Source: an uncultured Bacillales bacterium (GTDB lineage Bacteria > Bacillota_I > Bacilli_A > RF39 > UBA660). From it: a DNA stretch of 60,645 nucleotides. The notes below the pieces were generated by a model, which was not told the origin of the DNA, searched no databases, and was given only the letters and a program-made list of their open reading frames with translations. The translations under genes and the position numbers were made by a program. The stretch lies in the NCBI GenBank assembly GCA_946614095.1, contig CAMOGG010000002.1, positions 1 through 60,645 on the forward strand, read 5' to 3'. Below are positions 4,577 through 34,388 of this stretch, one piece after another; the first letter of the stretch is position 1, and every line of letters starts with the position of its first letter.

Positions 4577-5014
4577 ATGAAAAAAGGGATTATTTTAATA
4601 ATATGTTGTGTTTTATTGACAGGGTGTGTACCAAAAACTAAGGCTCAATTTGATGATATTATAGAAGAGGCAGATCCTATTCGAAAGGAAGATAAAATTG
4701 TTGGAATGAATTATAAGATTACCATTCCTAAAAATTATTCTTTTTATCGAGTACTTTCTACTCATATTGTTGATTCTATTGCTCATTATAAAGATTTGAA
4801 TGATATTCAATCGTTTGTTGTATCGGTTACTTTGAAAAATGAAACAGAGAAAGATATTCGTTTAAAAGAAGTATTGGTTAAAAATGATGATATAGTGACG
4901 AATCGCTTTTCTAATGATATTATTTTTTATAAAGGTGGAGTTAATTCATTTTCTATTGTTATTGGTCAACCATTATCTTTTCAATCATTTATTGAATTTG
5001 TTTTTGATAAATGA
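4577..5014 (+). CDS. Lipoprotein, function unknown
   Basis: Signal peptide with lipobox: MKKGIILIICCVLLTG|C. GGAGG RBS precedes the start. Confidence 0.7.
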   Translation: MKKGIILIICCVLLTGCVPKTKAQFDDIIEEADPIRKEDKIVGMNYKITIPKNYSFYRVLSTHIVDSIAHYKDLNDIQSFVVSVTLKNETEKDIRLKEVLVKNDDIVTNRFSNDIIFYKGGVNSFSIVIGQPLSFQSFIEFVFDK

Positions 5015-5095
5015 TTTTTTATTTTTTCCTTTTTTTTTTTGAAATATTAGGTTATACTTAAGTAGAGAATAAGGTTTACTTTAGGAGGATGAGTT

Positions 5096-6865
5096 ATGAA
5101 AAAGAGAATTAAAGTTATTTTGACTTTAGTGATTTTGGGTTGTATGGTTTGGTTTTTAATTGTTTCTCCATTGATACAGTTTCATCGTAATGAGAAGAGT
5201 GTTGAAAAAGCAGGGAAAAGATATTTTGACTTGAATCAAAATGAGCTTCCAACTGGAGAGAGGGTTAAAACGTTGAGTTTAAAAAAACTTTATTTTGAAA
5301 AACTTTTGGAAAATGATATTTTTGCTCCTTATACTCGAAAAACTTGTTCTTTAGAAAAAAGTTGGGTTAAAGTCAAAAGAGAAGAAAATGATTATCAATA
5401 TTATGTATATTTGGATTGTGGTATCTTAAAATCTTCTGTTGATGCGAAGGGACCTGTTATTCGGTTAAAAGGTAAGGAGAAAATAACTCTAGGGGTTGGT
5501 GATCAATATGAAGATCCTGGTATTTCTAGTGTGGTTGATGATGTGGATGGAAAACTAAATACTTCCGATGTAAATATTAAAGGAAAAGTAGATACATCAA
5601 AAGTTGGGGTTTATGAAATTACTTATTCTGCTTATGATAAACTTAGTAATGCTGGAGTAGCTACTCGTACTGTTTCTGTTGTTAAAAAGGCTTATAATAC
5701 TTTTAAAAAGGATTTAGGCAAAGAAACAAATTATAAAGGTATGCCTACGAATAATTATGTAAGACTTTCTAATATGGTTTTTGCGGTTTATGGTATTGAT
5801 GAAAACAAGAATATAGTTTTAGTGGCAGATAAAGATGTTGCGAATGTCAGCTATAATAAGATTAATGATTGGTTGAAATATTACTATCAGCATTTTACTA
5901 AGAAATCAAAATCTATGATTGTTCCAAGTAAGTATTGTAATATGAAAGTTGATGAGAGTAACCTTAATACAACAGAGTGTACTTCTTATACCAAAGAGAG
6001 AAATGTTTATATTCCTTCTATTGTTGAAGTAAATAAAGCAGCGGGTGATTATGATAGCTTCATGAAACCAGTTACTATGTCTTGGCTTTCTACGAGTCAA
6101 GATTCCAAAAAAGCATATTTAACCCGTAATGTTTTTTATGGAAGTGATTATGAAAAAAGTTTTGTGGCTTATGATATAACAGAAAACTATGGTGTTCGAC
6201 CAATGCTTACTATAAAAGGTAGTACTTTAATTACTGGTGGTGATGGTAGTTATGCAAATCCATATACTTTTGGAGATTCTGAGCCTGCTAAAGGATCATC
6301 CTTATTGAATACAAGAGATACAGGAGAATATATTTCAGATGGTTCTTTCTTATGGAGAATTGTTGATGTTATGAAAGATGGTACTACGAAAGCTATTAGT
6401 GAAGAAGTTATTACTCTTGCAGAGGCAAAACAAGATTCTCTTTCTGAAAGAATTACCTATAATCCAAAAGATAAGACTAGTGTTGGTTATTATATTAATA
6501 ATAAAGTTAGTGAGTTTGTTGATACTTCTAAACTTGTTAATCATCAAATAGAAGTTCCAATTTATCAAAATAAGATTATTTATGGTGAAGAGTCTACAAC
6601 AAAAAAATATAACGTTGTTTTGTCAGCACCAAATATGTTTGAAATGTTTAGCGCAGCACCTTCTTCTACAAGTAGTTCTTATTGGTTTTTAAATACTTCT
6701 TTAGAAAATGGAGTGGGGGCGGCTTTAACTGAAATAGGTGTTCCTTATAATGATAAGATAGGTCCTTATACTACTTTATCGGTGCGTGTTGTTGGGTATT
6801 TTAAAGATAGTACAATTATTAGTACTGGAAAAGGTACTGAGAATTCTCCTTATGTTGTTAAGTAG
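5096..6865 (+). CDS. Type-A surface protein 1: TM anchor, pilin-head-like domain, DUF5011-type Ig domain, two beta-rich LWRI/GVRP-type domains
   Basis: AGGAGG RBS at 5083-5088. N-terminal TM helix. Head segment ending YYVYLDCG. GPVIRLKG...YEDPG...GVYEITYSAYD matches the DUF5011 pattern. Domain ends are GGDGSYANPYTFG and GKGTENSPYVVK. Confidence 0.75.
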   Translation: MKKRIKVILTLVILGCMVWFLIVSPLIQFHRNEKSVEKAGKRYFDLNQNELPTGERVKTLSLKKLYFEKLLENDIFAPYTRKTCSLEKSWVKVKREENDYQYYVYLDCGILKSSVDAKGPVIRLKGKEKITLGVGDQYEDPGISSVVDDVDGKLNTSDVNIKGKVDTSKVGVYEITYSAYDKLSNAGVATRTVSVVKKAYNTFKKDLGKETNYKGMPTNNYVRLSNMVFAVYGIDENKNIVLVADKDVANVSYNKINDWLKYYYQHFTKKSKSMIVPSKYCNMKVDESNLNTTECTSYTKERNVYIPSIVEVNKAAGDYDSFMKPVTMSWLSTSQDSKKAYLTRNVFYGSDYEKSFVAYDITENYGVRPMLTIKGSTLITGGDGSYANPYTFGDSEPAKGSSLLNTRDTGEYISDGSFLWRIVDVMKDGTTKAISEEVITLAEAKQDSLSERITYNPKDKTSVGYYINNKVSEFVDTSKLVNHQIEVPIYQNKIIYGEESTTKKYNVVLSAPNMFEMFSAAPSSTSSSYWFLNTSLENGVGAALTEIGVPYNDKIGPYTTLSVRVVGYFKDSTIISTGKGTENSPYVVK

Positions 6866-6873
6866 GTGTTGGT

Positions 6874-7671
6874 ATGCTTGTGAATAAAAAACATAAAGAA
6901 TTATTCGGTATTATTCTACTTCTTTTTATTGCTATTATTGCTGTTCTTTATGAAATATGTCGTCCATATTATAATAGTGTTAATCGTGTTTCTAATATTT
7001 TAGAAGAAAAGAAAAAAGATACGAAAGATTATCATACGATTGGGTGGCTTAAAGTGCAGGGAACAACTTTAGATTTACCGATTTTGACTATTAATCATAA
7101 AGATCCGCCTGTTAATAGAGAACATTTTTCTTGGGTATTAAATGAAGATGATCAATATCATAATGTTATGAATATACTAGGTCATAATATATTTAATTTA
7201 TCATCTTCTCCTAAATTACATTTGGAGCATTATCAAAGATTTGAAGATTTGTTATCTTTTGTTTATTATGATTTTGCAAAGGAGAATAAATATATTCAAT
7301 TAACTATTGATAATAAAAATTATATTTATAAAATATTTTCTGTTGGTTTTATTCCATCTTATGAAGTATCTCTTTTTCCAACTGGCGAATATTCTAGGGA
7401 GCAATTATCTAAACAAATTTCATGGTTGAAGGATATTTCCGTTTATGACTATGATTTGGATGTTCAGAATGATGATCATATTATTTCACTGGTTACTTGT
7501 ACAAGGCTATTTGGTTATAATGATATGTCGAAAGACTTTATTGTTAGTGGTAGATTGGTTCATTCTGGTGAACTTATTTCAGATTATAAAGTTACTAAAA
7601 ATAATCAATATAAAGAAATAAATAAAATATTGAAAGGTGATGGTGAGAATGAAGATGCTTCTTCAACATAA
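6874..7671 (+). CDS. Class-B-sortase-like transpeptidase 1
   Basis: N-terminal TM helix. IGWLKVQGTTLDLPIL, ILGHN (His), ISLVTCT (Cys) and SGRLV (Arg) are collinear with the S. aureus SrtB motifs. Confidence 0.75.
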   Translation: MLVNKKHKELFGIILLLFIAIIAVLYEICRPYYNSVNRVSNILEEKKKDTKDYHTIGWLKVQGTTLDLPILTINHKDPPVNREHFSWVLNEDDQYHNVMNILGHNIFNLSSSPKLHLEHYQRFEDLLSFVYYDFAKENKYIQLTIDNKNYIYKIFSVGFIPSYEVSLFPTGEYSREQLSKQISWLKDISVYDYDLDVQNDDHIISLVTCTRLFGYNDMSKDFIVSGRLVHSGELISDYKVTKNNQYKEINKILKGDGENEDASST

Positions 7672-10600
7672 AATAAAGATTTTGTTGATTGTACTTTTTG
7701 TTTTTTCAGTTTTCTTTGTTGCATCTCTTTCTTTTGACGGTAATTCTATTACTAAGAAGAAGAGTGAAAAATTAGAAGGAGAAACTGTAACAACAAGTAA
7801 AAAGGTAAAATGTGAAAATTATACTGTTCAAGAAGCAGAAGATAAGAAGAAAAGTGGTTTTGATTTTTTTGGTCGTTATGGTACGGAAGGTGAATTTTCT
7901 AAAAATGGTGATTTTACCATTTCAATTTCCCCAAGTACTTCAAAATCAAACAATCCAGTTGGTTCTGATTTTGAATTGTATGTTGAAAAAATTTCCATTG
8001 TTAGTTTGTTAGAACAAAATGATGATTTAGTAGACTCAATGGAGAAGTATACTGTATATAATTCTAAAGATTATGGACCAGATGATTATCGATTGTCTAA
8101 AAAGAAAAGTATCACGATTAGTAGATCTGAAGTAGAATCACTTGCATCTTCAGTAACAAGTGCTGATGCTGATACTGTTTTAATTACTTTGAAAGCAGTT
8201 AAGGCTAATTCTGATCCAATGTGTGAAGGAACTGTTTTTTATAATGTAGAGGTTGGTCTTGATTCTTTTTCTAGTGCTGTTTCTGAACCGATTGAAGGGG
8301 TTGAAACAGTAGGAGATTATTATATTGCTCCTGTTTCTATTGATTGTAATAATCCGAAAGATGACTTTGAACAAAGTTATTGTGTAGGAGAGAAAGGTTA
8401 CTTTAATCCTGGAACAAAAAAAACTGTAACAGTTAAAGATAAGAGTAGCGATTTAAAAAGAAATGGTGGTACTTTTAAGAATATTCGTTATGCTTTAAAA
8501 TGTGATGCTCATTCGATTGTACCAAGTAATAGTTCTATTGCGAAAGATAGTGCTAGTGAAAGTAAATACTATGTTAATGATGAAATATTAAAGGCTTCTC
8601 ATACAACTAGTGAGTCTTTTGGTAACTATACGTATCATTATGCACCAGGTTTGCCTACAGAAACGGTTCCAATTAAGGTTGATACCACCTGTACTGAAAC
8701 ATTGCATGTTCAGTATGGACCACCTGTATCTGTAAAAGCTGGAATTTGTTTTGAATATAATGTTAAAGTTACTAGTACAGTAGTTTGTAAAGCTTCTAAG
8801 GTACCTGCACCTAAGGCTGCCACTTATTGTAATCCTATTCCAAAATGTTATCATAAAACCGGTAATTGGACAGGAGCCAATGCTGGACCTAATGATTCTT
8901 TTGATATGTGTATTCAGCAATGTGATGGTGGAAAGTATTCTGACTATTGTAGTCAAAAATGTTATAGTTCTATTTATACTGTTGGAGAAAAGAGAACTTC
9001 TAGTATTCTTGATGATTATAGTGTTCAACAGATAAAATCTTATCGTAAAGATAAAAATGGTCGTCAAAGAATTACTACTAGCTCTAATGTTGATAAAGCT
9101 AATGCTTTAATTGATAGTATTAATAAATGTTTATCGTTGGAAGAGAAAAGTACTTTAAAAAATTCACATTATACAATGACTAATTATCCGAATGTTGGAA
9201 CTTCTGGTGGAATAAATTTCTATGGATGTTATTATTGGGATGAGTCTGCTAAAGAAATTAAGTGGGCTTCTGGTATTGAAGGTAATATTTTAGAAAATTC
9301 TCATGGTAAAGTTGGTAATGCAAGATATGCTCCTGGAAGATGGTATGGTGTTCATCGTAAAACTTCTAATTACGCTGGATATTCTTCAAATGATGGTTTC
9401 ATGCGTAAAGCTTTTTCATCTGGTTTATGTACTGCTTCCTGTAGATGGGATGGATGTTCTCAGACAGAATATTGGAATCCTGCTCAGGCTAAAGCAGATT
9501 ATGATGAGAATATGAAAGTCTTTAATGATGCAAAAACAGCGGCTGAGAAGGCAAGCACTTGTTCAGAGAAAACAACAGAATTTACTATGAAAGTTACGGA
9601 GTATGGTACTTATATGAAATCTGCTGATACGTTAACCTCAAAGCCTTCTGGACAAAATATTGACGAAAAAGAAAAATTATTAGGGAAAAGATATGTTAGA
9701 GATTATTCTAAGTGTTATCAAACCTCTGATATTAATAAAAATGAGATGTATCAAACGGTTTGGGGATTCCCTGGTGTTTGGCAAGATGCAAAGAGTATGA
9801 AAATTTCATTTGTACAAGTTCCTGATTCTGTTTTCATTTCTAATAAATTTTGTCTTCCGTTAGATGCTAAAACAGTTAATGAGAAATGGTGGACTTATTA
9901 CTATACTGCTCAATATGAGCATAGTACAACGAGTTTAACGTCTCAAACTTATCAAGATAAATGTATGAAAACTACAACGTGTACTAATTGGGTACATGAA
10001 AATGATATCGATTGGGATAAAGATATTACATATAATATTACAGGTTCTACTGATAATTTTGGTCATTTTGGATGGAACTTGGATGTTAGTTGTTTCTATG
10101 CATATTCTACGAATCCAACAACCGGTAAGGACTGTAAACCTTCTATTGAGTGTGATTCTTCTAGTGGATATACAGTGCGAAGTGTTGATTTATCCGATAT
10201 GTTTCCTAGTCCAGATGGTGAAACTCATTCTGCTGATACAACCGGAAGGGATACTGGATTTAACTGGACAAAGTATGCAACAAATGTTAAAAAAGATCCT
10301 AATTATGTTAGTGATCCTATTGCCTATTTGAAAGAAACTCAAAAAAATGAAATTTTATTGCGTAAACGAGGAAAATCTACTTATACGAATGAAGCAGAAT
10401 TGGATTATCGTATTTATTTATCTCGTGAGGATTTACGTAATATTAAAAAATATGTTACTAGTGATTCATTCTCTTATACGGATTATGGCTCTCGTGGTAA
10501 ATTTATTCCAAATGGAAGCGTTTTAAGCTATCAAAGTAACGTATTACGTTCTACTACTTCGAATGGACTTTCAGTATTTAATTCTGATAATATATTAGTA

Positions 10601-10675
10601 GATGAAAGTCTGTTGAAATGTAATAATGTAGATAATGGTAAGTGTGCACAATTTGTTAGTGAGGTGAAAGAATAA
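7649..10675 (+). CDS. Giant cysteine-rich secreted protein C1 (unknown family)
   Basis: Signal/TM segment KILLIVLFVFSVFFVASLS. I count 29 Cys. Paralogous to 15524-18238. The start overlaps the end of the sortase gene; ATG 7649 was chosen after the AAAGG RBS. Confidence 0.8.
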   Translation: MKMLLQHKIKILLIVLFVFSVFFVASLSFDGNSITKKKSEKLEGETVTTSKKVKCENYTVQEAEDKKKSGFDFFGRYGTEGEFSKNGDFTISISPSTSKSNNPVGSDFELYVEKISIVSLLEQNDDLVDSMEKYTVYNSKDYGPDDYRLSKKKSITISRSEVESLASSVTSADADTVLITLKAVKANSDPMCEGTVFYNVEVGLDSFSSAVSEPIEGVETVGDYYIAPVSIDCNNPKDDFEQSYCVGEKGYFNPGTKKTVTVKDKSSDLKRNGGTFKNIRYALKCDAHSIVPSNSSIAKDSASESKYYVNDEILKASHTTSESFGNYTYHYAPGLPTETVPIKVDTTCTETLHVQYGPPVSVKAGICFEYNVKVTSTVVCKASKVPAPKAATYCNPIPKCYHKTGNWTGANAGPNDSFDMCIQQCDGGKYSDYCSQKCYSSIYTVGEKRTSSILDDYSVQQIKSYRKDKNGRQRITTSSNVDKANALIDSINKCLSLEEKSTLKNSHYTMTNYPNVGTSGGINFYGCYYWDESAKEIKWASGIEGNILENSHGKVGNARYAPGRWYGVHRKTSNYAGYSSNDGFMRKAFSSGLCTASCRWDGCSQTEYWNPAQAKADYDENMKVFNDAKTAAEKASTCSEKTTEFTMKVTEYGTYMKSADTLTSKPSGQNIDEKEKLLGKRYVRDYSKCYQTSDINKNEMYQTVWGFPGVWQDAKSMKISFVQVPDSVFISNKFCLPLDAKTVNEKWWTYYYTAQYEHSTTSLTSQTYQDKCMKTTTCTNWVHENDIDWDKDITYNITGSTDNFGHFGWNLDVSCFYAYSTNPTTGKDCKPSIECDSSSGYTVRSVDLSDMFPSPDGETHSADTTGRDTGFNWTKYATNVKKDPNYVSDPIAYLKETQKNEILLRKRGKSTYTNEAELDYRIYLSREDLRNIKKYVTSDSFSYTDYGSRGKFIPNGSVLSYQSNVLRSTTSNGLSVFNSDNILVDESLLKCNNVDNGKCAQFVSEVKE

Positions 10676-10678
10676 TCT

Positions 10679-11206
10679 ATGAATAAAGGTATGTTAACAA
10701 TTGGGATTATTTTACTTTCTATTATTTCTTTGCTATTACTTAATGTTTTAAATAACTATATGACTGGTGGAGAGTTAGATTATTATCTTGTCAAAGAAAC
10801 TGCTGATGCTGCTATGTTAGATGCAGTTGATAATACATATTCTGCTGTAACTTGTGGATTGCCTCGAATTGATAAAGAAAAATTTGTGGAAAGTTTCGTT
10901 TTACGTTTTGGTAGTAGTATTGATGGCAGTAGAGGTTATGAATTGAGCTTCTATGATATTAATGAAGTACCTCCTAAAGTAAGTGTTCGAGTAGATTCAT
11001 TGACTGTCTTGTCATTTAATGTAACCGGTGGAGAGGAAAAGGATACAAAACAAGCGGCTGATATCACAACAGAATATAGTGCTATTTTAGAGAGTAATTA
11101 TATTTCAGATATTACAGTAGAAGAAGGATTAAGAAGTTCAAATCCTACTGATAAATCTTATGATATGTGTCGTCCTCTTGATGAGATTTCAAAAGAAAGT
11201 AAGTGA
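10679..11206 (+). CDS. Small N-terminally anchored protein D1 (pseudopilin-like?)
   Basis: Starts MNKGMLTIGIILLSIISLLL, identical over 20 residues to D2. GAGGTGA RBS lies inside the end of C1. Two Cys. Confidence 0.75.
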   Translation: MNKGMLTIGIILLSIISLLLLNVLNNYMTGGELDYYLVKETADAAMLDAVDNTYSAVTCGLPRIDKEKFVESFVLRFGSSIDGSRGYELSFYDINEVPPKVSVRVDSLTVLSFNVTGGEEKDTKQAADITTEYSAILESNYISDITVEEGLRSSNPTDKSYDMCRPLDEISKESK

Positions 11207-11228
11207 TGTTACTTTCTTTTTTTTGTTT
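11192..11228 (+). terminator. Rho-independent terminator closing cassette 1
   Basis: Stem gaaagtaa/ttactttc (extendable by A/T pairs), 6-nt loop containing the TGA stop, followed by a long T-run. Confidence 0.7.
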
Positions 11229-11313
11229 TTTTAATTATTTTTTATTTTATCTTTTAAAAAAATTGAAATTGTTGTATACTTAATAATAGTAATAATAGGG
11301 GAGTGTGATTTAT

Positions 11314-12867
11314 ATGATTTTTCGTAAACCATATGCATTCTTAATTAAAAATTTTAGAAAAATACATATTGTTTTGTTATTAATTAGTTTATATTGTGCT
11401 TATCAATTATTTGATGTTAGTCGCTTTGTAAGTGATTTTATGCAATATGGTACTTATGATATTTTTCAAAATCCTATTAGTAAACATATTACTTGGTTAT
11501 TAAGACTTTCTACACTTTTGTTGGCTGCAGGTAGTGCTGCGTTATTAATTTTATTACGATATAAAAAGAAACCTTGGAAAGTATATCTCATTCCAATTAT
11601 TGAATATTTGGTTTTATTCTTTGTGTTGGGAATGGTTAGTAGTTTCTTTAATGCTTATTCTAATACGGTAGAGACAACAGATTTACGATTGTCTAGGGAT
11701 TTATTGATGATTTTCATTATTGCTCAATTGCCTGCTATTGGAATTTTCATCATGCGTATTCTAAATCTAGATATTAAAAAGTTTAATTTTAACTCTGATG
11801 AAGAATTTTTACAGTTATCAGAGCAAGACCGTGAAGAATTTGAAGTTAATTTTAATTTTGATATTAATTCGGTTAAACGATTTTCTAGACGTGCTTTTCG
11901 TAATATTCGCTATTTCTATATTGAGCATAAATTAATTTGTAATACTTTAGTAATACTTCTTGTCGTTTTTACTAGTTTCCAAATTTATCGCTCTATTTTT
12001 ATTACCCATAAGAGTTATTCTGAGGGTGATGATTATATGATTAATGGATATACCTTTCAAGTTCATAATAGCTACTATACTGATAAGGATTATAGTGGTA
12101 CTGTGATTTCTAAGAAAAGTAATTTTGTTGTTGTAGATTTGGATGTTGTTAATCATGCTGCACGAAGAAGTTTACGAATTGATAATTTCCATTTGAAAAA
12201 TGGAGTAGAGGATTATACCACTACTAGAAAAACTTATGCAACAGAGTTTCAAGATTTAGGAGAAACTTATGATAGTGTAAAAGAATTACAGCAAAATGAA
12301 AAATTTCATTTTATTATTGTTTTTAAAGTAGATAAAGATTTGAAATATAATCGGTTTCAATTATATTATCAAGAAAAAGATTATTTAAGAAAGATTAAGT
12401 TGAATGTAAAAGATGTTAGTGAGATTCAAGATGAAAAAGTGATAACGATAGGAGATAGTATGAATTTTTCTCTTCGAGGAAAGAAAGAATCTATTTCTAT
12501 TGATGATTATGAGTTTCTTGATTCTGTTGATTATTTAAGTCGTATTTGTGGAGTTGTTAATTGTTTTACGGAACCACAAGTGTTTACTGCCCCAAGTGAT
12601 CAAAAAGTCTTAAAAATTGAATTTTCTTCTATTCTTTTTGAGGGGAAAGACATGGTTGACTTTTCAAATGAATATGGTAAAATTATTTATATAGATAATA
12701 GTAATGAGGATAATGAAGAGGTTGAACTTAACTTTAAGTATCCATTTTCTAAAGTAGCTACTGGTAAATACCTTTATACTTTGGTTCCACGTGAACTAGA
12801 AGAGTCTTCTAGTTTGAAATTAGTGTATGTTGTGCGAAATAAAAAATATGTTTATCAGTTAGTATAG
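11314..12867 (+). CDS. Polytopic membrane protein with extracellular DUF4352-like beta domain
   Basis: About 4 N-terminal TM helices, a charged loop and a further TM helix. These are followed by NFVVVDLDVVNHAARR...FHLKNG...FHFIIVFKVDKD, a DUF4352-type pattern. AGGGGAG RBS, ATG at 11314. Confidence 0.6.
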   Translation: MIFRKPYAFLIKNFRKIHIVLLLISLYCAYQLFDVSRFVSDFMQYGTYDIFQNPISKHITWLLRLSTLLLAAGSAALLILLRYKKKPWKVYLIPIIEYLVLFFVLGMVSSFFNAYSNTVETTDLRLSRDLLMIFIIAQLPAIGIFIMRILNLDIKKFNFNSDEEFLQLSEQDREEFEVNFNFDINSVKRFSRRAFRNIRYFYIEHKLICNTLVILLVVFTSFQIYRSIFITHKSYSEGDDYMINGYTFQVHNSYYTDKDYSGTVISKKSNFVVVDLDVVNHAARRSLRIDNFHLKNGVEDYTTTRKTYATEFQDLGETYDSVKELQQNEKFHFIIVFKVDKDLKYNRFQLYYQEKDYLRKIKLNVKDVSEIQDEKVITIGDSMNFSLRGKKESISIDDYEFLDSVDYLSRICGVVNCFTEPQVFTAPSDQKVLKIEFSSILFEGKDMVDFSNEYGKIIYIDNSNEDNEEVELNFKYPFSKVATGKYLYTLVPRELEESSSLKLVYVVRNKKYVYQLV

Positions 12868-12877
12868 GGAGATTAAT

Positions 12878-14683
12878 ATGATGAAGAAAGATAATAAGTT
12901 GAAGTTTATTGTTACAGTTTTAATATGTTTTGCATTTGCATATTTTTTGATTATTTATCCAATTCAGGTTTTTCGTGGAAATGAGAATAAATTAAAGGAT
13001 GCTGCTGCTCGTTATTTTGAATTAAATCCAAGCCAGTTGCCTACTGGTGAGCGGATTAAAACTGTTGCTTTAAAAGAGCTTTATCATGAAAAGTTTTTAG
13101 AAACGGATATTTATGCTCCGTATAGTAAGAAGACATGTTCTGTCGAAAATAGTTGGGTAAAGGTTCGTAAAGAAAATGAAGCTTATCGTTATTATGTTTA
13201 CTTAGATTGTGGTGGTGCACTTCATTCTTTTGTGGATCATAAGGGACCAGAAATTACCTTGAATGGAAAAAAATATATTTCAATTGGTTTGGGAGAGGAT
13301 TTTACGGATCCTGGTGTTAATCGAGTAGTAGATGCAAAAGATGGAAAAATTGATTTATCAAATGTCATTGTTAAAGGAAAGGTTGATAATCAAAAAGTCG
13401 GTACTTATGAAATTACTTATACAGCTTTTGATCAATTGAGTAATAAAACAGTTGTGACAAGAAAGGTAGAAGTTGTTCAAAAATTATATGATACAATTGC
13501 TACTAAACTAAATGGTACCCGTAATTTTGTGGGAAATCCAGATAATCACTATGTTCAATTATCTAATATGTTATTTAGAGTATTTGGTGTTAATGAGGAT
13601 AATGATGTAATTCTTGTTGCAGATGAAGATGTTGCAAATGTTAATTATTCAAAATTAGATAAATGGTTAGATTATTATTATCAACATCTTAATTCCAATG
13701 CTCAAAAAATGATTGTGGACTCTCAATTTTGTAATGTAAGACTTTCTGAAAATAATTTAGATACTACTCAGTGCAATGCTTATACAAAGAAGAGAAAGAT
13801 TTATATTCCTTCTGTTGTTGAGGTTAATAAAGCAGCTGCAGGGGATGAGAATTTTATGAAGCCTGCTACAATGTCTTGGATTGCTAATTCTAAAACAGAT
13901 AATCAAGCTTATGTGACTCGTGATATTTTCTTTGATCAAGACTATGGAAAAAGTTTTCTACCATATAGTGTGTATGATAATTATGGGGTTCGTCCTATGT
14001 TAGTTATTAAAGGATCTTCCTTAATTACTGATGGTGATGGTACTCGTACAAATCCTTATCTTTTTGGAGATTCTAAGAAAGGGGCAAGTGGTTCATTATT
14101 AAGTAAGAGAAATACTGGTGAGTATGTTACTTCTGGAGGTATGTTATGGAGAATTATTGATACCTTTGAAGATGGAACTGTAAAAGTTGTAAGTGTTTCA
14201 ACTTTATCTAGCCCAAGTTCTGTAGCTAGTTGCTATCCTGATCCTGATAATTCAAAAATTCTTTATAATCCAGAAGATAAAATGAGTATTGGTTATTATA
14301 TTAATAACAAAAGTTCTGATTATATTGATTCTAAGGATTTTGTTAACCATGTTATTGAAGTTCCTATTTATAAGAATAAAATAATATTTGGAGAAGAGGT
14401 CAAAACAGTTAAATATAATGTGATGTTTTCGGCTCCTAATATGTATGAGATGTTTAGTGCCCAGGTTCGTAACCTAGTGGGATATTACCCTCATTCTTAT
14501 TGGCTAGTAAATAGTTCTAATGGAAATCGAATTGCTGGAGCTATTACAGATATTGGGGTTCCAATTAATGAGAAAATTGAAGAATACTATGCTTCTAATG
14601 TTAGAGTGGTTGGTTTTATGAAAAAAGGTCTTACAATCAGTAGTGGAGATGGTACTGAGATTCTGCCTTATAAGGTAAAGTAG
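12878..14683 (+). CDS. Type-A surface protein 2 (paralog of 5096-6865)
   Basis: Collinear with A1 throughout: LPTGERIKT, YYVYLDCG, a DUF5011-type segment (GTYEITYTAFD), DGDGTRTNPYLFG and the end GDGTEILPYKVK. Confidence 0.75.
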   Translation: MMKKDNKLKFIVTVLICFAFAYFLIIYPIQVFRGNENKLKDAAARYFELNPSQLPTGERIKTVALKELYHEKFLETDIYAPYSKKTCSVENSWVKVRKENEAYRYYVYLDCGGALHSFVDHKGPEITLNGKKYISIGLGEDFTDPGVNRVVDAKDGKIDLSNVIVKGKVDNQKVGTYEITYTAFDQLSNKTVVTRKVEVVQKLYDTIATKLNGTRNFVGNPDNHYVQLSNMLFRVFGVNEDNDVILVADEDVANVNYSKLDKWLDYYYQHLNSNAQKMIVDSQFCNVRLSENNLDTTQCNAYTKKRKIYIPSVVEVNKAAAGDENFMKPATMSWIANSKTDNQAYVTRDIFFDQDYGKSFLPYSVYDNYGVRPMLVIKGSSLITDGDGTRTNPYLFGDSKKGASGSLLSKRNTGEYVTSGGMLWRIIDTFEDGTVKVVSVSTLSSPSSVASCYPDPDNSKILYNPEDKMSIGYYINNKSSDYIDSKDFVNHVIEVPIYKNKIIFGEEVKTVKYNVMFSAPNMYEMFSAQVRNLVGYYPHSYWLVNSSNGNRIAGAITDIGVPINEKIEEYYASNVRVVGFMKKGLTISSGDGTEILPYKVK

Positions 14684-14700
14684 TAAAGGAGTGATATGAG

Positions 14701-15546
14701 GTGAATGTTAAGGAAAAAAAGAAATCAATGAAAAGGCAAAGAAAACGGGATAGGACTGTTCTGTTATTAACTATTTCTATATTATGTATTGTTTTTTTAG
14801 GATTAGCATTGTGTAGGAGTCTCATTGCTCCTAAAGAGTATTATCAACTAGAGTCTAGAGTTTCTAATGTTGCTCTTTCTCAAGATAGTAATACTTCTGA
14901 TTACCAAACTGTAGGTTGGTTGAAGGTACAGGGTACTAATCTTGATTTGCCAATTTTAGCTGGAATTAGTGATGATATTAATTTTCCTGTAAAGAAGGAA
15001 AAATATGTTTGGACAGTAAGTAATGATGATAAATTTCATAATAAGATGAATATTATGGGACATAACATTTATAACTTATCTTCTAGTCCAAAAATAGAAT
15101 CTGAAGATTTTCATCGTTTTGAGGAATTGATGTCTTTCGTCTATTATGATTTTGCGAAAGAGAATAAATATATTCAATTGACAATTGATGGAAAAGATTA
15201 TCTTTATAAAATATTCTCTGTAGACTTTATTAATGCAGTTGATATTGATATGATTACAGGAGATGATAGCCTTAATGAAGATATTGGTTATCAAATTGAT
15301 TTATTTAAAGATAATACATTGTATGATTATGATGTAGATGTTAATGAAAATGATAAAATAATATCTTTGATTACTTGTACTAGGTTTTTTGGTACTGATA
15401 AATTTGTTGATTTTTTAGTAAATGGACGTTTGGTTCGTGAAGGAGAAAAGATTGATGATTATTCAGTGAAGAAAAATGATAATTATACAAAAGTTGAAAA
15501 TGTTATAAAAGGAGATGATAGCAATGAATCAAATAGTTCGATGTAG
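14701..15546 (+). CDS. Class-B-sortase-like transpeptidase 2
   Basis: VGWLKVQGTNLDLPIL, IMGHN, ISLITCT and NGRLV. GTG start 8 nt after the AAAGGAG RBS. Confidence 0.75.
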   Translation: MNVKEKKKSMKRQRKRDRTVLLLTISILCIVFLGLALCRSLIAPKEYYQLESRVSNVALSQDSNTSDYQTVGWLKVQGTNLDLPILAGISDDINFPVKKEKYVWTVSNDDKFHNKMNIMGHNIYNLSSSPKIESEDFHRFEELMSFVYYDFAKENKYIQLTIDGKDYLYKIFSVDFINAVDIDMITGDDSLNEDIGYQIDLFKDNTLYDYDVDVNENDKIISLITCTRFFGTDKFVDFLVNGRLVREGEKIDDYSVKKNDNYTKVENVIKGDDSNESNSSM

Positions 15547-18238
15547 AAGAATAATTGGGGTTTTTATTCTAATATTTGCTGTTTCTATCTTTGTTTTCTT
15601 ACCTAGTGAAGTATTTGCAGCTACGAAGAAAGAATGTAAGAATTATCTGACAAATACAAAGTTTATTTCTAGATATAATGCTAATATTACTACCACTGGT
15701 TCAAAAAATAAATATAAGATTTCTATTGAGCCTACTTCTTCTGATAAAAAGTTAGAAAAAGCTCTTAGAAAAGTTATTTTTAAAGTAATTAAAATTAATG
15801 ATAAAAATCAAGATGGAAGTAAAACTGTTTCTTATGGTAAACCTCTAACAATCAATGGTCAATATTTTACCAATGATCTTGGTGAAAAAGAGATGAGTAT
15901 TGTTTTAGAGTCTACTGAAAAAAGTGTCGATCCTAAATGTACTGGTACTGTAACATTTACTCTTGGAGTTACCACAGGTGGAGATGAGATTGTTTTAGAA
16001 GAGGATATTCCTACTATTGAAGATCAGTTTGGTGATGTTCAAGGAAAATTAATTGATTGTACAAAAACTCAGACTGAGGCTTTTGAAAAAGCTTTTTGTG
16101 AAACTAAAAATGCTGCTTTGAAAGCTGATCCTGATGGTACAAAAGGTTTGAATTATTCTGGAAAGTTTAATGGTCATAAGAATTTTAAAGATGTAGTTAA
16201 GGGAGAGAATGGAGAACTTGGTTATAAAAAGCTACAATGTAGTGCAACTAAGTTTGAAATTACTAATGATTATTATGTAAATAAGACACATCTTTATGGT
16301 TATGGTGAATATACTGAAAATTTTGGTAATTATACATATCATTATTCTCCAGGAGTTGTAACACAAGGTGAAAATATTAACTGTAAGGTTAGATGTGAGG
16401 AAGCTGTTGTTGTGGAATATGGTCCTCCGGTTGCTTCTAAAGCTGGTTTGTGTTTTGAATATAAAGTTAAAGTTACAAGTAGAGTTAGTTGTAATATGAT
16501 TGAAAAACCAAAAACTCCTAAAACAACGAAGCATTATTGTACTCCAACGCCTATTTGTTTAACTAGTGCGGGTACTTATACCAATCAAGGTGGTCCTAGT
16601 GAAGAGTTTGATTCTTGCGTTAAAACATGTGATGGTGGTAAATATACTGATAAATGTACGAAGAAATGTTATCAAAAAGTTTATGGTGATTCTGCTACAA
16701 AAACAACTACACGTGGAAAAGAATACTTAACAGAACAAATTAAGTATGGAGCAGATGCTTTTAGCCTTCAAGCGTGTAAAAATGAGAGTGGATTCCATGG
16801 ATGTTATTATCGTGCGGGTAATTCTATTCTTTGGGAAGGTGTTTCAAGTTCAACTCCTGGTAGATGGTACTTAGTTTCTCCTCATAAAGATTTATCAGCT
16901 TATGGAGTATTTGGTAATGGTATTTATCGTCATATTTATGGTGAAGGTAACTATTGTCATGATAATTGTTGGTGGTCTGGATGTTCTGATTCAAATGTTT
17001 ATTTAAATCCTGGTATATCAAAAAAAGATTATGAGAATAATAAGGAATTGTATGACACTGCTGTTGCACAATGTAAAGTTGAAGCATCTTGTACAACAAC
17101 TACAGCTGATTTTACAATTTCAGTAAACTATAAAAATGGTAAAAATGAAGTTAAGACTTTAGACTTCCCTTATACAACTAAGAAAGATAAAATGACATCT
17201 AAAGGATCTGATGAGAAAATAGAAGATACTAACAAAAATAATGATACAACCATCCTATGTGCAGATAGAGATCCTTTAACTGGTAAATGTAATGATGATA
17301 AAGGAAGAGGATGTTACTCTACAAAAGATGCTAAGAGAATTTATATGACAGAGTGGAGCTTCCCAGGTTCTTGGATTAATAATAAATCTGGAGAAATATC
17401 TTATGTTCCTAAAGATGATAAGAGTTGGCAAACTATGAAAAATAAATTCTGTATTCCATTAGATGCACAAGATGTTAATGTTAAATGGTGGAATTATCGT
17501 CAATTAAAAAATCCAAATTATAGTCAATCCTCAGCTTCATCAAGTGCTTATGTTGAAAAATGTGTACAGAATGGCTATGGTATTCAGAATATTAGTACAT
17601 TTAGTAATAGTGATGTAGAGGATTGGAATATTAATGCGAAAACTTCGAATTTTGGTTATTTCGGATGGAATATTCATGTATCATGTTTCTATGCATTAAA
17701 TACAGGAAAACGTACAACTACATCTACTAATACGAATTCTTCTGTTCCTAAAGAATGTTTATCTGATGCTTCTTATCGAATTCGTTCTGTAGATTTAGCT
17801 AATTTATTCCCAGCTACTGATGGATCTGTATCTGAATCAAGAGCTCCTGGATTTAACTGGAGTGAATATGCAACTAAGACAAAAGCTAATAAAGATCCGG
17901 CTAATGATTATTACGAAATTAATCCTGCTAAGTATGCTACATTTGTTGCTTCAAAAGCACAAGCAATTTATTCTGATGAGTACTTAGATTATTCAATTGA
18001 TTTAACTCGTGATATGATTGCTAAATTAAGAAAAGATAGTAAATCTAATAATTACTCTACGTATGCTAATGATGATGAGTATTTTACAAAAAATTATGTT
18101 ATTAATTATCGTAGTCCATTATTTAAAAATGGTGGAGCACTAAGTAGTAGTTCTAAGTATCCTACACTTGAGTCATTGAAATGTAATAATATGAAAAATT
18201 ATAATAGTGGTTGTGAAGAATTTGGAGGTAATGATTAA
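15524..18238 (+). CDS. Giant cysteine-rich secreted protein C2 (paralog of C1)
   Basis: Signal peptide ending SEVFA|ATKK. I count 32 Cys. Blocks shared with C1 include GNYTYHY, YGPPV..KAG.CFEY.VKVTS, CDGGKY, PGRWY, KFC.PLDA, NFG.FGWN..VSCFYA, RSVDL, GFNW and LKCNN. Confidence 0.8.
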   Translation: MNQIVRCRRIIGVFILIFAVSIFVFLPSEVFAATKKECKNYLTNTKFISRYNANITTTGSKNKYKISIEPTSSDKKLEKALRKVIFKVIKINDKNQDGSKTVSYGKPLTINGQYFTNDLGEKEMSIVLESTEKSVDPKCTGTVTFTLGVTTGGDEIVLEEDIPTIEDQFGDVQGKLIDCTKTQTEAFEKAFCETKNAALKADPDGTKGLNYSGKFNGHKNFKDVVKGENGELGYKKLQCSATKFEITNDYYVNKTHLYGYGEYTENFGNYTYHYSPGVVTQGENINCKVRCEEAVVVEYGPPVASKAGLCFEYKVKVTSRVSCNMIEKPKTPKTTKHYCTPTPICLTSAGTYTNQGGPSEEFDSCVKTCDGGKYTDKCTKKCYQKVYGDSATKTTTRGKEYLTEQIKYGADAFSLQACKNESGFHGCYYRAGNSILWEGVSSSTPGRWYLVSPHKDLSAYGVFGNGIYRHIYGEGNYCHDNCWWSGCSDSNVYLNPGISKKDYENNKELYDTAVAQCKVEASCTTTTADFTISVNYKNGKNEVKTLDFPYTTKKDKMTSKGSDEKIEDTNKNNDTTILCADRDPLTGKCNDDKGRGCYSTKDAKRIYMTEWSFPGSWINNKSGEISYVPKDDKSWQTMKNKFCIPLDAQDVNVKWWNYRQLKNPNYSQSSASSSAYVEKCVQNGYGIQNISTFSNSDVEDWNINAKTSNFGYFGWNIHVSCFYALNTGKRTTTSTNTNSSVPKECLSDASYRIRSVDLANLFPATDGSVSESRAPGFNWSEYATKTKANKDPANDYYEINPAKYATFVASKAQAIYSDEYLDYSIDLTRDMIAKLRKDSKSNNYSTYANDDEYFTKNYVINYRSPLFKNGGALSSSSKYPTLESLKCNNMKNYNSGCEEFGGND

Positions 18239-18762
18239 TGAATAAAGGTATGTTAACAATTGGAATTATTTTACTTAGTATCATTTCTTTGTTACTAATC
18301 AATGTATTAACAAATTATTCTACAGGAAGTGAGTTAGATTATTATCTTGTAAAAGAAACTACTGACGCTGCTATGGAAGACTCTATTGATAAAGTTTTCT
18401 TAAGAGAATGTGGATTACATAGAATTGATAAAGAAAGATTCGTTGAGAACTTTCTTTATCGGTTCGCTAATAGTGTGGATTCTACTCGTGATTATCATAT
18501 TAAATTTTATGATATTAATGAAGTTCCACCTAAAGTTAGTGTTAAAATTGATTCTTTGACTGTTTTATCTTTTAATGTAACAGGTGGAGATGAAAAAAAT
18601 ACTAAACAAGCTGCTGATATTACGACAAGTTATGATGCTATATTGGAAACAAATTCTTTGTCTGATTTATCAGTAGAGGAAGGACTTAAAGAGTCAAGTA
18701 AAAATTCAGTAACTTATGATCAATGTCGATCATTATTAGAATTAAAAGGGAAAGGAGAATAA
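18238..18762 (+). CDS. Small N-terminally anchored protein D2
   Basis: The ATG overlaps the C2 stop (TAATG). Roughly two-thirds identical to D1 by eye. Confidence 0.75.
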   Translation: MNKGMLTIGIILLSIISLLLINVLTNYSTGSELDYYLVKETTDAAMEDSIDKVFLRECGLHRIDKERFVENFLYRFANSVDSTRDYHIKFYDINEVPPKVSVKIDSLTVLSFNVTGGDEKNTKQAADITTSYDAILETNSLSDLSVEEGLKESSKNSVTYDQCRSLLELKGKGE

Positions 18763-18764
18763 AA

Positions 18765-19574
18765 ATGGGAAATTTGACGACTGGTCTTAAGAAGTTTATG
18801 CAAAATAAAAATACAGTAACAGTAGTTGGTGTTATTGCTGCTATTATTGTTTTATATTTTGCTTATACTATGCGTATTAGTTCAGCTATTAGTCCTGTAG
18901 TTGTTCCTTATGCTAAAGAACAAATTCCTGCTGGAACATTAATTTCTGAAGCAATGATAGGTACAATGGAAGTTCCCCCTTCTATGTTAGAGGGAGATGT
19001 TATTCGTAATACAGGTGAAATTATTGATAAATATTCTTCTGCTGATACAGTTATTCCTCAAGGAAGTTTGTTTTATAAACGTTCTGTAGTTGAAAAAGAA
19101 CAGTTACCTGCTAATATTATTTTAGATTATCCAAAAGGATATGTTTTATATAATTTATCAGTTTCTACGAATACTACTTATGGTAATTCTGTTTATCCTG
19201 GAAACTATATTGATATTTGGCTTAAAGCTGTCAATAAACTTACAGATGAACAAGTTCAAGCTGGAGCAAGCGGAGCTAATCAGATTATGTATAGTAAATT
19301 AATTTCTAATGTCAAAGTTTTGGCTGTTAAGGATGCTAATGGTCAACCTGTATTCCAGAATTTGGATGAGAATAGAGTTCCTGCAATGATAGTATTTGCT
19401 TTACCTGAAGAATATTACACTTTATTACGTAAAGCAAGTTATATGAGAACTTATGATACTACTATTGAATTGGTTCCTACTAATGAAAGTCTAAAAGATG
19501 AACCTGGAAATCTTGAGATTTCTAGTGAAGACCTAAAAGAGTGGATCAATCAAAATACTTATTGGACAAATTAA
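18765..19574 (+). CDS. cpaB: CpaB/RcpC-like pilus assembly protein (TM + SAF domain)
   Basis: AAAGGAG RBS at 18751-18757. TM helix VTVVGVIAAIIVLYFAY, then the SAF-like segment VVVPYAKEQIPAGTLISEAMIG...IPQGSLFYKRSV. Confidence 0.65.
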   Translation: MGNLTTGLKKFMQNKNTVTVVGVIAAIIVLYFAYTMRISSAISPVVVPYAKEQIPAGTLISEAMIGTMEVPPSMLEGDVIRNTGEIIDKYSSADTVIPQGSLFYKRSVVEKEQLPANIILDYPKGYVLYNLSVSTNTTYGNSVYPGNYIDIWLKAVNKLTDEQVQAGASGANQIMYSKLISNVKVLAVKDANGQPVFQNLDENRVPAMIVFALPEEYYTLLRKASYMRTYDTTIELVPTNESLKDEPGNLEISSEDLKEWINQNTYWTN

Positions 19575-19592
19575 TAAAAGGATGTGAGTTGA

Positions 19593-21263: not shown

Positions 21264-21278
21264 AAAAGGGGTGATGTT

Positions 21279-22181
21279 ATGTATATTGAAGAGTTATTTA
21301 TTATTATTGTCTTTGTAGTTGCTATTTATTTATATAGAAACTATCAAGGAGAGAATGTAGGTAAATATGTATTAACACAAGTGCAAGGTGTCTATGATCG
21401 TTTTGCTCCATATTCCTTTAAAGTTGTTCGTGAAAAAACGAAACAATTAGGAGAGGAGTATACACCAAGACAATATGCTATTCAAGTTTCGTTATTTGCC
21501 TCTTTTGCAGCAGTAGTTACTTATTTATATTTTTATAATTTAATTATTAGTATTATTTATGCTTTAATTGCTGTATCGTTTGTACCATATTTAACCTATT
21601 TAAGGTGTAAAAAGACTTATTCGGAGTTCTTATTTGAACAAGTGCAAGTTTATACTTCTAATACGATTATGGAATTTGCTACGACACAATCGTTTGTTAA
21701 AGCTTTGGAGGGTGTAGCGAACTCTGGTATTTTAGAGGACCCTGTACTTAGTGATGTTAGACAAATGATTACAATGTCTTATGATAATGGTACCATTGAC
21801 GAGGCTTTAGAGTATATGAGTAAGTTATATCCATATTATATTGTAAAAAACATGCATCAATTGTTTTTACAAATTACTAAAGAAGGTGCTCAAAACTCTG
21901 CTGATTCTCTTGAAAACATGCAACTAGATATTGATATGCTTGTTGAGAGTGTTTATCGAGATCGTATTGAGCGTGCTACTTTCCATAAATCTTTTTTACA
22001 GTTTGGTATTATGCTTTATTTACTAGTTATGTTAGTTCAGTATTTGCTTGGTAGAGAAACTTATTTGGTTTTGCTCGAAAGATGGTATATTCAGTTTTTG
22101 ATGCATGGTGTCTTAATTGTTAATACTTATTTCCTTTTAAAAGGAGAAAAATACTATAATGAGAATGTAGGTGCTGAATAA
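21279..22181 (+). CDS. tadB: TadB-like platform protein (T2SS-F domain)
   Basis: N-terminal TM helix, a cytoplasmic helical domain and C-terminal TM helices. Sits directly after the ATPase, and its stop overlaps the next gene (ATGA-type junction at 22181). Confidence 0.65.
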   Translation: MYIEELFIIIVFVVAIYLYRNYQGENVGKYVLTQVQGVYDRFAPYSFKVVREKTKQLGEEYTPRQYAIQVSLFASFAAVVTYLYFYNLIISIIYALIAVSFVPYLTYLRCKKTYSEFLFEQVQVYTSNTIMEFATTQSFVKALEGVANSGILEDPVLSDVRQMITMSYDNGTIDEALEYMSKLYPYYIVKNMHQLFLQITKEGAQNSADSLENMQLDIDMLVESVYRDRIERATFHKSFLQFGIMLYLLVMLVQYLLGRETYLVLLERWYIQFLMHGVLIVNTYFLLKGEKYYNENVGAE

Positions 22182-22984: not shown

Positions 22985-22991
22985 AAAATGA

Positions 22992-23020
22992 TTGATATTT
23001 TGTAATGTATTTGGTATAAT
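22992..23020 (+). promoter_or_regulatory. Near-consensus SigA promoter for the pilin gene
   Basis: TTGATA (22992-22997), 17-nt spacer, then TGgTATAAT (TATAAT at 23015-23020). Confidence 0.7.
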
Positions 23021-23055
23021 AATTTTGTATATATTAGAAAGGATGGGATGAATGA

Positions 23056-23217: not shown

Positions 23218-23268
23218 TAATTTTATTTTGAATTAAAAATTATTTTATAAAAGGTGGGAGGATTTGCT

Positions 23269-23721: not shown

Positions 23722-23731
23722 GGTGATTTAG

Positions 23732-25254: not shown

Positions 25255-25258
25255 TGAA

Positions 25259-25288: not shown

Positions 25289-25313
25289 GTATTTATGAAA
25301 GAGAGGTTGTATT

Positions 25314-25619: not shown

Positions 25620-25631
25620 TAGAAAAATTAA

Positions 25632-34383: not shown

Positions 34384-34388
34384 AAGTA

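Follow-up and report, generated by a model that had tools for sequence, protein, structure and literature searches.

Two tandem paralogous cassettes for predicted surface proteins and a divergent sortase in a pilus-type and type IV secretion locus of uncultured gut Bacilli

Introduction

This work concerns two tandem gene cassettes, A-B-C-D, located at positions 5096-11206 and 12878-18762 of a 60,645-nucleotide (nt) stretch of DNA, referred to below as the window, from an uncultured Bacillales bacterium (GTDB RF39, UBA660; GenBank assembly GCA_946614095.1, contig CAMOGG010000002.1, forward strand; ENA ERZ28612951 scaffold_536). Each cassette encodes a predicted surface protein (A), a sortase-family protein (B), a giant Cys-rich protein (C) and a small membrane protein (D). 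The cassettes stand at the head of a locus that continues with pilus-type genes and genes of a type IV secretion system (T4SS).

Several described systems resemble parts of this arrangement. The Tad (type IVc) pilus loci of Aggregatibacter, Caulobacter (Cpa) and Bifidobacterium (Tad) encode the pseudopilins TadE and TadF and a large accessory protein of the TadG type. Class B sortases are represented by the SrtB-IsdC pair of S. aureus, by SrtB of C. difficile and C. perfringens, and by the pilus-polymerising class-B-type enzymes of S. pyogenes. The conjugative T4SSs of Gram-positive bacteria carry adhesin modules, such as PrgA/B/C of pCF10 and the tcp locus of pCW3 with its plasmid sortase and collagen adhesin. 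In the pilE/pilS-type antigenic variation of Neisseria, gene conversion takes place between expressed and silent donor copies. A family of small proteins, DUF5411, is reported to be encoded beside CpaF/PilC-type genes in gut Clostridia (PMC9523054), and an operon of 8-9 genes of the type CpaF-PilC-DUF5411-internalin-like has been predicted in Roseburia, Ruminococcus and Eubacterium (PMC9523054).

For the module found here, in which the four cassette genes follow a fifth gene, X, no description was found in the literature on pili or T4SS of RF39/RFN20 or on Tad, VirB4 and sortase. The two cassettes are true paralogues. We hold with moderate confidence that they are two alternative surface or target-contact modules for one machine, cassette 2 being ancestral and cassette 1 a functional and rapidly diversifying alternative.

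The two cassettes are paralogues

The two cassettes and the elements next to them are listed below; lengths are in amino acids (aa) and TM stands for transmembrane segment.

4983..5040, + strand: upstream hairpin (stem 4983-4992 / 5007-5016) with a T-rich run, 3' of a lipoprotein-like gene
5096-6865, + strand: A1, 589 aa, bitopic surface protein with an N-terminal TM and long helix, Bact_surface_Ig-like and beta-rich DUF6273-type domains
6874-7671, + strand: B1, 265 aa, sortase family (class-B-like), N-terminal TM, motifs GHN / TCTR / GRL
7637-10675 (database start 7655), + strand: C1, 1012 aa, secreted, 29 Cys, the most divergent member of the C family
10679-11206, + strand: D1, 175 aa, DUF5411, single N-terminal TM
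11191-11242, + strand: terminator-like element closing cassette 1, perfect 12-bp stem (11191-11202 / 11209-11220), 6-nt loop and T-run
11305-12867, + strand: X, 520 aa, five TM and a C-terminal beta-rich region (weak DUF4352 match)
12878-14683, + strand: A2, 601 aa, adhesin-like, at the ancestral position
14701-15546, + strand: B2, 281 aa, sortase family
15515-18238, + strand: C2, 907 aa, secreted, Cys-rich (32 Cys)
18238-18762, + strand: D2, 174 aa, DUF5411

The gene order and the coordinates of both cassettes given by the initial annotation were reproduced exactly by the listing of open reading frames (ORFs). The junctions are also as it described them. The stop codon of B falls about 32 nt inside C in both cassettes, D1 begins 3 nt past the C1 stop, and D2 overlaps the C2 stop by 1 nt. 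Cassette 1 does end in its own terminator, the hairpin and T-run after D1, and cassette 2 continues downstream with nothing terminator-like between D2 and the next gene. Since a hairpin and T-run also precede A1, and A1 has a strong ribosome-binding site (AGGAGGA, 8 nt 5' of the ATG), cassette 1 appears to be a transcription unit of its own. An 11-T homopolymer (5030-5040) touches a TTGAAA hexamer 5' of A1 and may represent a terminator tail, an UP element or a slippage-prone tract. A scan of the entire 60-kb window with Rfam returned zero matches, and thus no riboswitch or leader was found.

The proteins of the two cassettes were compared by BLASTP and all four pairs align end to end, with identities of 53% for A (E=0), 50% for B (E=4e-93), 29% for C (E=6e-102) and 69% for D (E=2e-78). 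Because the alignments cover the full length of the proteins, the similarity is not limited to TM or low-complexity segments. The two D proteins are identical over their first 20 residues. The near-identical nucleotide stretches reported in the sortase genes were also recovered, as a 38-nt string (7264-7301 and 15142-15179) with 36 of 38 positions identical, where none is expected by chance. Within C, similarity is lowest in the N-terminal third, whose approximately 300 residues are 20-33% identical, in comparison with 43-63% in the core. A PHROGs search with the cassette proteins returned nothing, and a phage origin of the cassettes is not supported.

Copy number in relatives and age of the duplication

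Relatives of the locus were collected by a profile scan with the D alignment, taking one genome per species, which gave 77 loci from about 73 genomes of uncultured gut Bacilli. All are metagenome-assembled genomes (MAGs) labelled "Bacilli", "Mollicutes" or "Erysipelotrichaceae", including Mycoplasma sp. CAG:877 and Candidatus Faecimonas, and we take them to belong to RF39/RFN20-type orders. The closest relative of the window in this collection is L001. Two further metagenomic contigs, L079 and L080, were added to the 77 loci, and the window, L001, L079 and L080 form the four-species clade used for the comparison of rates.

In most of the 77 loci the gene order is GreA-(lipoprotein)-X-A-B-C-D-CpaB-TadA-...-TrbL-...-VirB4, with one cassette. 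The locus is about 33 kb long, and its position beside greA is constant in about 73 genomes. This single-cassette order indicates that the conserved unit is the five-gene module X-A-B-C-D, that the locus is chromosomal and vertically inherited, and that cassette 2 is ancestral. Cassette 2, with clear orthologues, lies at the ancestral position, and cassette 1 is an extra unit upstream of X. In the window X is present in a single copy between the cassettes, at the head of the ancestral module. The term "four-gene cassette" of the initial annotation is therefore correct for the duplicated unit A-B-C-D, but the unit conserved in relatives has five genes, including the omitted X.

A second copy of the module is present in several relatives, either in tandem or unlinked. 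Tandem cassette pairs occur in L001, L014, L068 and CAG:877 (L061/L065), and unlinked X-A-B-C-D copies lie on other contigs of three MAGs (L028, L043 and L013). The exact layout of the window, ABCD-X-ABCD-CpaB, is found in L079 and L080, and ABCD-X-ABCD in L001. The unlinked copy of L028 adjoins genes for a Mur ligase and Ddl, which suggests that these organisms have peptidoglycan. In L024 (1916-2692) and L071 an additional CpaB-like gene lies between X and A, and L024 also has two tandem CpaB-like genes after D.

The protein identities in the four-species clade, between species for each copy and between the copies, are as follows.

A: copy 1 57-76%, copy 2 60-79%, copy 1 against copy 2 50-64%
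B: copy 1 46-55%, copy 2 64-80%, copy 1 against copy 2 41-53%
C: copy 1 34-49%, copy 2 58-73%, copy 1 against copy 2 37-45%
D: copy 1 64-76%, copy 2 75-85%, copy 1 against copy 2 60-70%

A1 and A2, and likewise D1 and D2, are separate orthologous groups in the four species. The duplication therefore predates the split of the window, L001, L079 and L080. B1 and C1 are no closer between species than they are to the cassette-2 copies.

The closest pair of the clade is L001 and L079, with CpaB 91% identical. In this pair the identities in cassette 2 are 79% for A, 80% for B, 73% for C and 85% for D, and in cassette 1 they are 76, 51, 46 and 76%, respectively. Their DNA loses its similarity across B1-C1, and a colinear stretch of 10 kb at 80% starts with the first base of D1 and reaches through TadA. 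The breakdown extends over 7293-9994 of L001 and 2471-5177 of L079, and the recovery at the start of D1 is abrupt. A boundary as sharp as this suggests replacement of the B-C segment, and the hypervariable B1-C1 block is compatible with allelic replacement via the conserved flanks.

Rates of evolution and the state of cassette 1

The genes of the locus evolve at very different rates. The median identity to relatives is 78-79% for the ATPase and the two polytopic proteins encoded downstream, 58-62% for D, 45% for A, 42% for B and 30-36% for C, and no other genes of the locus evolve as fast as A, B and C. For conserved genes, the nonsynonymous distance (dN) that separates the window from L001 is 0.011 for GreA, 0.067 for the HD hydrolase and 0.15 for TadA. 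In cassette 2 it is 0.26-0.27 for A2, B2 and C2 and 0.12 for D2, and in cassette 1 it is 0.30 for A1, 0.48 for B1, 0.74 for C1 and 0.23 for D1. The ratio of dN to the synonymous distance (dS) in the same comparison is 0.47-0.66 for B1 and C1 and 0.30-0.34 for B2 and C2; with dS at 0.6-1.2, near saturation, these ratios are indicative.

The higher ratios of B1 and C1 might be explained if cassette 1 were a redundant duplicate under relaxed constraint that is being lost, its fast evolution being decay. Most related species have one copy, a search of 5.8 billion proteins gave no relative of C1 above 31% identity, and A1 of L001 is broken, all of which would agree with such a loss. However, all ORFs of both cassettes in the window are intact and the four of cassette 1 are of full length. 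The catalytic triad is retained in B1, and none of the 59 invariant columns of the C-family alignment, conserved Cys residues included, is lost in C1. Intact ORFs and these retained residues make cassette 1 look functional, and the same may be said of both copies. In addition, the extra copy has been kept since before the four species diverged, it has its own ribosome-binding site and terminator, and A1 and D1 evolve just slightly faster than A2 and D2. Decay of cassette 1 is thus regarded as quite unlikely.

In L001, three ORFs stand in place of A1 and two in place of C2 (4738-6454 and 14779-17457, respectively), which could be due to pseudogenisation or to sequencing errors in the MAG.

Gene conversion

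The initial annotation had also proposed that the cassettes swap sequence by gene conversion via their conserved segments, giving antigenic or specificity variation within the lineage. A synonymous profile and a nucleotide alignment along the cassettes, suggested with this idea, were made, the proportion of synonymous differences (pS) being calculated in 30-codon windows. Between the window cassettes pS is about 0.5-0.6, that is, saturated, in essentially every such window, and it is 0.49 at the N-terminus of D, which is 90% identical as protein. The longest similar DNA tract covers 163 nt at 81% identity, and apart from the 36/38 string no identical stretch is present. Because pS is saturated and the best tract is of this kind, the conserved stretches are attributed to constraint at the protein level in an AT-rich genome and not to recent exchange. 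Two 30-codon windows in A with lower pS (0.24-0.32) show no rise in nucleotide identity and were treated as noise.

The separate orthologous groups of A1/A2 and D1/D2 in four species indicate that the copies have evolved independently since the old duplication. In agreement with this, D1-D2 and A1-A2 identities within a genome are not above those between genomes of the clade.

A different situation is seen in two distant relatives. In L068 the D genes at 2537-2990 and 9990-10440 are 100% identical over about 450 nt, with flanks at 70-85%. In CAG:877 the D genes of L061 (about 860-1330) and L065 (about 10000-10470) are also 100% identical over about 450 nt, again with flanks at 70-85%. The orthologous D genes of L068 and CAG:877 are about 84% identical. 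This is the signature of concerted evolution and, unless the identity is an assembly artefact, it would mean that conversion has acted independently in the two. The loss of similarity between L001 and L079 across B1-C1, with its sharp return at D1, may likewise be taken in favour of exchange. However, conversion in this gene family, as judged from these alignments, seems to homogenise the conserved D and not to diversify the variable genes, whose variable parts are not shuffled. Both window copies are also complete with their own signals, unlike silent donor cassettes. Gene conversion between the window cassettes as a source of antigenic variation was thus not borne out, and we judge it very unlikely.

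Protein A

Protein A has one N-terminal TM, followed by Bact_surface_Ig-like and DUF6273 domains (Pfam). The structure of A2 was modelled from 64 homologues with a predicted local distance difference test score (pLDDT) of 89 and a predicted template modelling score (pTM) of 0.77. The model consists of an unbroken helix spanning residues 2-49 (TM 8-26), a small beta head, an Ig-like domain and further beta-rich domains. By fold it matches surface-protein Ig-like domains and the adhesin domain at the C-terminus of Legionella Lcl.

It is important to compare this N-terminus with that of the type IV pilins. Like these pilins, A begins with a long alpha-1 helix whose first half is hydrophobic, seen in the model as the 48-residue helix. 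The class III signal peptide recognised by prepilin peptidase has Gly at position -1 and usually Glu at +5. A Gly ahead of the hydrophobic segment is absent from A1, from A2 and from the family consensus. The name "pilin-head adhesin" given to A earlier therefore holds for the pilin-like helix and the adhesin-like domains, but not for prepilin processing.

The sequence LPTG(E/T)R in A was considered as an internal sortase motif and rejected, since in the model it lies where the N-terminal helix ends, and since some orthologues have I, L, V or S in place of its T.

A third, shorter A-like paralogue of 408 aa is encoded at 36772-37998 (+ strand), at the end of the T4SS block. It shares the TM and head module with A2 (34% identity over 79 aa) and has one DUF6273 domain that ends in SGSGTLEDPYILK. 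Together with A1 and A2, this paralogue brings the number of proteins of A architecture encoded by the locus to three.

Protein B

The sortase family assignment of B is near the limit of the Pfam profile PF04203 (cutoff 26.6 bits), with 30.6 bits for B2 and 25.3 bits for B1. The top matches of B in the PDB are the SrtB structures 5b23, 6kyc, 4ux7 and 1ng5 (E 2.5e-10 to 3e-6). The catalytic His (GHN), Cys (TCTR) and Arg (GRL) are kept in 76 B homologues and in all eight copies of the four species. The earlier label "SrtB-like" is supported by these observations, but B scores far under the SrtB equivalog TIGR03064 (41.5 bits, cutoff 153.75) and no substrate was found for it in the loci scanned. 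Two candidate internal motifs were rejected in addition to that of A: NY(S)TG in D, and NPTTG in C1, which is not conserved in C2 and falls within a low-confidence linker. By its sequence B appears to be a divergent sortase with intact active-site residues and no canonical substrate among the loci scanned.

Protein C

In the family alignment, protein C carries a Sec-type signal peptide with a near-invariant V-x-A site, and it contains 29-32 Cys residues, many of them invariant. Searches of C against Pfam, NCBIfam and PHROGs gave no match, and C2 gave zero matches to PDB sequences. The model of C2 (pLDDT 78, pTM 0.65) shows an N-terminal beta-sandwich and a large body. A fold search of this model against the PDB and BFVD gave nothing at E<1e-3, and an Ig-like subdomain alone resembles the Ig domains of glucuronidases. 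At 50% identity, 682 representatives of the family are present among 1.84 billion proteins; 470 of these match with E<1e-30, and none has an annotation beyond "hypothetical". For C1 no relative above 31% identity was found, as stated above. Protein C can be described, from its predicted features, as a Sec-secreted protein of about 100 kDa belonging to a closed family of unrecognised fold.

Protein D

The two D proteins match DUF5411 (Pfam PF17424) with 130 and 145 bits, well above the cutoff of 30. The possibility that D is a TadE-like pseudopilin was rejected, since hhalign aligned 2 columns. A search of the D profile against PDB sequences gave nothing meaningful.

The neighbouring blocks and flanks

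Downstream of the cassettes the locus continues on the same strand with two blocks.

18723..24217, + strand: pilus-type block into which cassette 2 runs, with a CpaB/RcpC-like protein, a TadA/VirB11-family ATPase, two polytopic proteins, a 53-aa Flp-like pilin and two pseudopilin-like proteins
24238..36756, + strand: Gram-positive-type T4SS block, with a weak T4SS_pilin-like protein, a TrbL/VirB6-like protein, a weak TcpE/VirB3-like protein, a VirB4-like ATPase, a SpoIID-domain wall hydrolase and a VirD4 coupling protein

The initial annotation had cassette 2 running into cpaB-tadA-tadB-tadC. A TadA/CpaF-family ATPase does follow, with 95.9 bits to T2SSE and with NCBIfam VirB11 and TadA-family matches under the equivalog cutoffs. 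The other labels are less secure. The CpaB/RcpC-like gene falls below the Pfam and the NCBIfam cutoffs (RcpC 26.9 bits, cutoff 28.8; TIGR03177 33 bits, cutoff 71), and no T2SSF signature was found at E<=1 in the two polytopic proteins at the TadB/TadC position or in ten orthologues. These two proteins resemble each other weakly (hhalign probability 31%) and may represent a very divergent or a different platform. They are encoded at 21279-22984 and are 72-91% identical across species, in comparison with 30-60% for the cassette proteins. At its C-terminus the ATPase (19593-21263) has some 200 residues of low-complexity sequence enriched in Pro, Val, Ala, Ser and Glu, an unusual feature for its family.

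The leader MKAATG|ELNLTVI... of the 53-aa pilin candidate and the leader ALGG|T(F/V)NLV... are kept in relatives, and there is no match to Pfam Flp or TadE. No Peptidase_A24 (TadV/CpaA prepilin peptidase) was found among the scanned locus proteins; it may be encoded elsewhere. In a protein of 1078 aa encoded at 48141-51377, outside the locus, a prepilin methylation motif (N_methyl) at the N-terminus is combined with Listeria-Bacteroides repeats. This giant pilin-like protein implies that the genome also encodes a prepilin peptidase and another type IV filament system.

The T4SS block scores 192 bits to T4SS-DNA_transf and 36 bits to TrbL_4, and contains the AAA_10/TraG P-loop and a SpoIID domain. 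This domain belongs to the likely T4SS cell-wall hydrolase of 791 aa (31215-33590), in which it stands in place of the usual lysozyme- or CHAP-type domain. The flanks are housekeeping genes, with U32 peptidases, an HD hydrolase and GreA on one side and DedA, RmuC, a sigma-70 protein, HtpG and a phosphoketolase on the other. The sigma-70 family protein (41010-43670, 886 aa) has regions 2-4 in its C-terminal 370 residues and an unannotated N-terminal extension of about 500 aa.

Proposed role of the cassettes

The reading of the cassettes as two alternative surface modules follows from the envelope nature of their products, the adhesin-like domains of A, the extreme rates of A, B and C beside a conserved core, and the long retention of the second copy. 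It agrees in part with the alternative or complementary adhesin sets for one machine proposed in the initial annotation: the paralogues are real and intact, head one locus, and include its fastest-evolving genes, while their adhesive function is what we infer from these features.

In the proposed mechanism each cassette would provide four envelope proteins, each with a single N-terminal hydrophobic segment. Protein A would be a membrane-anchored, multidomain, adhesin-like protein with a long stalk helix, an Ig-like domain and lectin/adhesin-like DUF6273 domains, and B a dedicated cysteine transpeptidase of the sortase family. A, C and D may form the exposed, target-contacting end of the apparatus, with B processing or covalently attaching the cognate C (or A). 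B and C would be translationally coupled and would co-diversify. D, which varies least among the four proteins and is the one that conversion appears to homogenise in relatives, could serve as the adaptor to the conserved machine. The old duplication placed a second A-B-C-D, which has a start and a terminator of its own, upstream of X. Cassette 2, the proximal one, would then retain the ancestral role, and the distal cassette 1 would offer an alternative specificity, its B-C core being changed or replaced between species.

Several observations weigh against this proposal. A search of the window and of 1219 ORFs from 78 related loci found no protein with a C-terminal sorting signal (motif, TM and basic tail), and the LPTG-like motif of A is judged structural from its place at a helix end and its variable T. 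D has no homology to the pseudopilin-like genes of the locus detectable by hhalign. The pilus labels are weak, with "TadB/C" lacking T2SSF and CpaB sub-threshold. The dN/dS ratios of B1 and C1 cannot separate positive from relaxed selection, because dS is near saturation, and A1 of L001, in three ORFs, hints that extra copies can decay.

It is also conceivable that X-A-B-C-D is a structural sub-assembly that spans or anchors the wall, a monoderm substitute for the secretin or alignment complex fixed to peptidoglycan by the sortase, and that the two copies serve the pilus and T4SS halves or two sites of the envelope. The module is single-copy in nearly all relatives and lies directly 5' of the CpaB-like gene; all of its members are membrane-anchored or secreted, and the presence of a sortase implies attachment to the cell wall. 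Relatives have peptidoglycan genes, and the D family is found with CpaF/PilC-type genes elsewhere. However, core parts of a machine are normally conserved, as the TadA/B/C-like proteins are at 78-79%, while A, B and C are the fastest at 30-45%. A bears Ig-like and adhesin-like domains, and genomes with a single copy have both the pilus and the T4SS halves. A structural role of this kind is considered unlikely.

The reading as alternative surface modules can be extended further. B may be an integral part of a hybrid type-IV-filament/T4SS machine and act on non-canonical substrates such as C, and the B-C pairs might then be interchangeable, co-evolving specificity cartridges that retarget contact-dependent exchange of DNA or protein, or attachment. 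This extension is speculative and we put it forward as a doubtful possibility. If it is true, B-C cartridges would let genome-reduced, uncultured gut Bacilli address different partner cells or host surfaces.

Comparison with known systems

The tandem duplication itself is ordinary gene-family evolution, and the hypervariable pair of a sortase and a giant protein within a conserved machine is of more interest. The features that stand out are a C family of 682 clusters at 50% without a recognisable fold, a sortase without a visible substrate, and the hypervariability of the sortase-C pair. They offer a handle on target specificity in monoderm pilus/T4SS hybrids and on roles of sortases beyond C-terminal anchoring. 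Since about 33 kb is kept at one place across an uncultured clade whose genomes are thought to be small, the locus probably underlies contact with hosts or microbes.

The tandem homologous surface-protein genes of the window, with conserved and variable segments, are reminiscent of Neisseria pilE/pilS. Unlike that system, the copies are complete with their own signals, have no high-identity tracts and form old orthologous groups.

The arrangement of the pilus-type block is similar to that of Tad loci: a CpaB/RcpC-like gene, a TadA/CpaF ATPase (T2SSE 96 bits), two polytopic proteins of about 270-300 aa, a Flp-like pilin of about 50 aa and two pseudopilin-like genes follow the cassette in the same direction, and A, with its hydrophobic helix at the N-terminus, is a large accessory protein. 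The locus differs from Tad in its platform candidates without T2SSF, its CpaB below cutoffs and the absence of a G/E processing motif in A, and no prepilin peptidase was seen in the window. The window module also includes a sortase and a Cys-rich protein of 900-1000 aa, and the locus is fused to T4SS genes.

The configuration of B is that of class B sortases in its SrtB matches in the PDB, its His-Cys-Arg residues, its N-terminal membrane anchor and its large surface-protein neighbours. It differs in being far under TIGR03064 and at or below the Pfam Sortase gathering score, and no sorting-signal substrate was found for it in the window or in 78 related loci. The predicted operon of gut Firmicutes likewise combines a DUF5411 gene with genes for a CpaF-family ATPase and surface proteins (PMC9523054). 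However, no sortase, C-family protein or T4SS block is reported for that operon, and D sits in a different module here.

The locus has in common with Gram-positive conjugative systems that VirB4, VirD4, VirB6/TrbL, a wall hydrolase and a weak TcpE-like protein share it with surface proteins and a sortase. The surface proteins of the window lack LPXTG anchors, unlike the pCF10 and pCW3 modules. In contrast to conjugative T4SS and integrative and conjugative elements, the locus is chromosomal and syntenic at greA in about 73 species, with no relaxase, integrase or tRNA found in the 60-kb window. Placed among these systems, the module would be an accessory surface or specificity part of a pilus/secretion machine, with an embedded divergent sortase and an unrecognised protein family.

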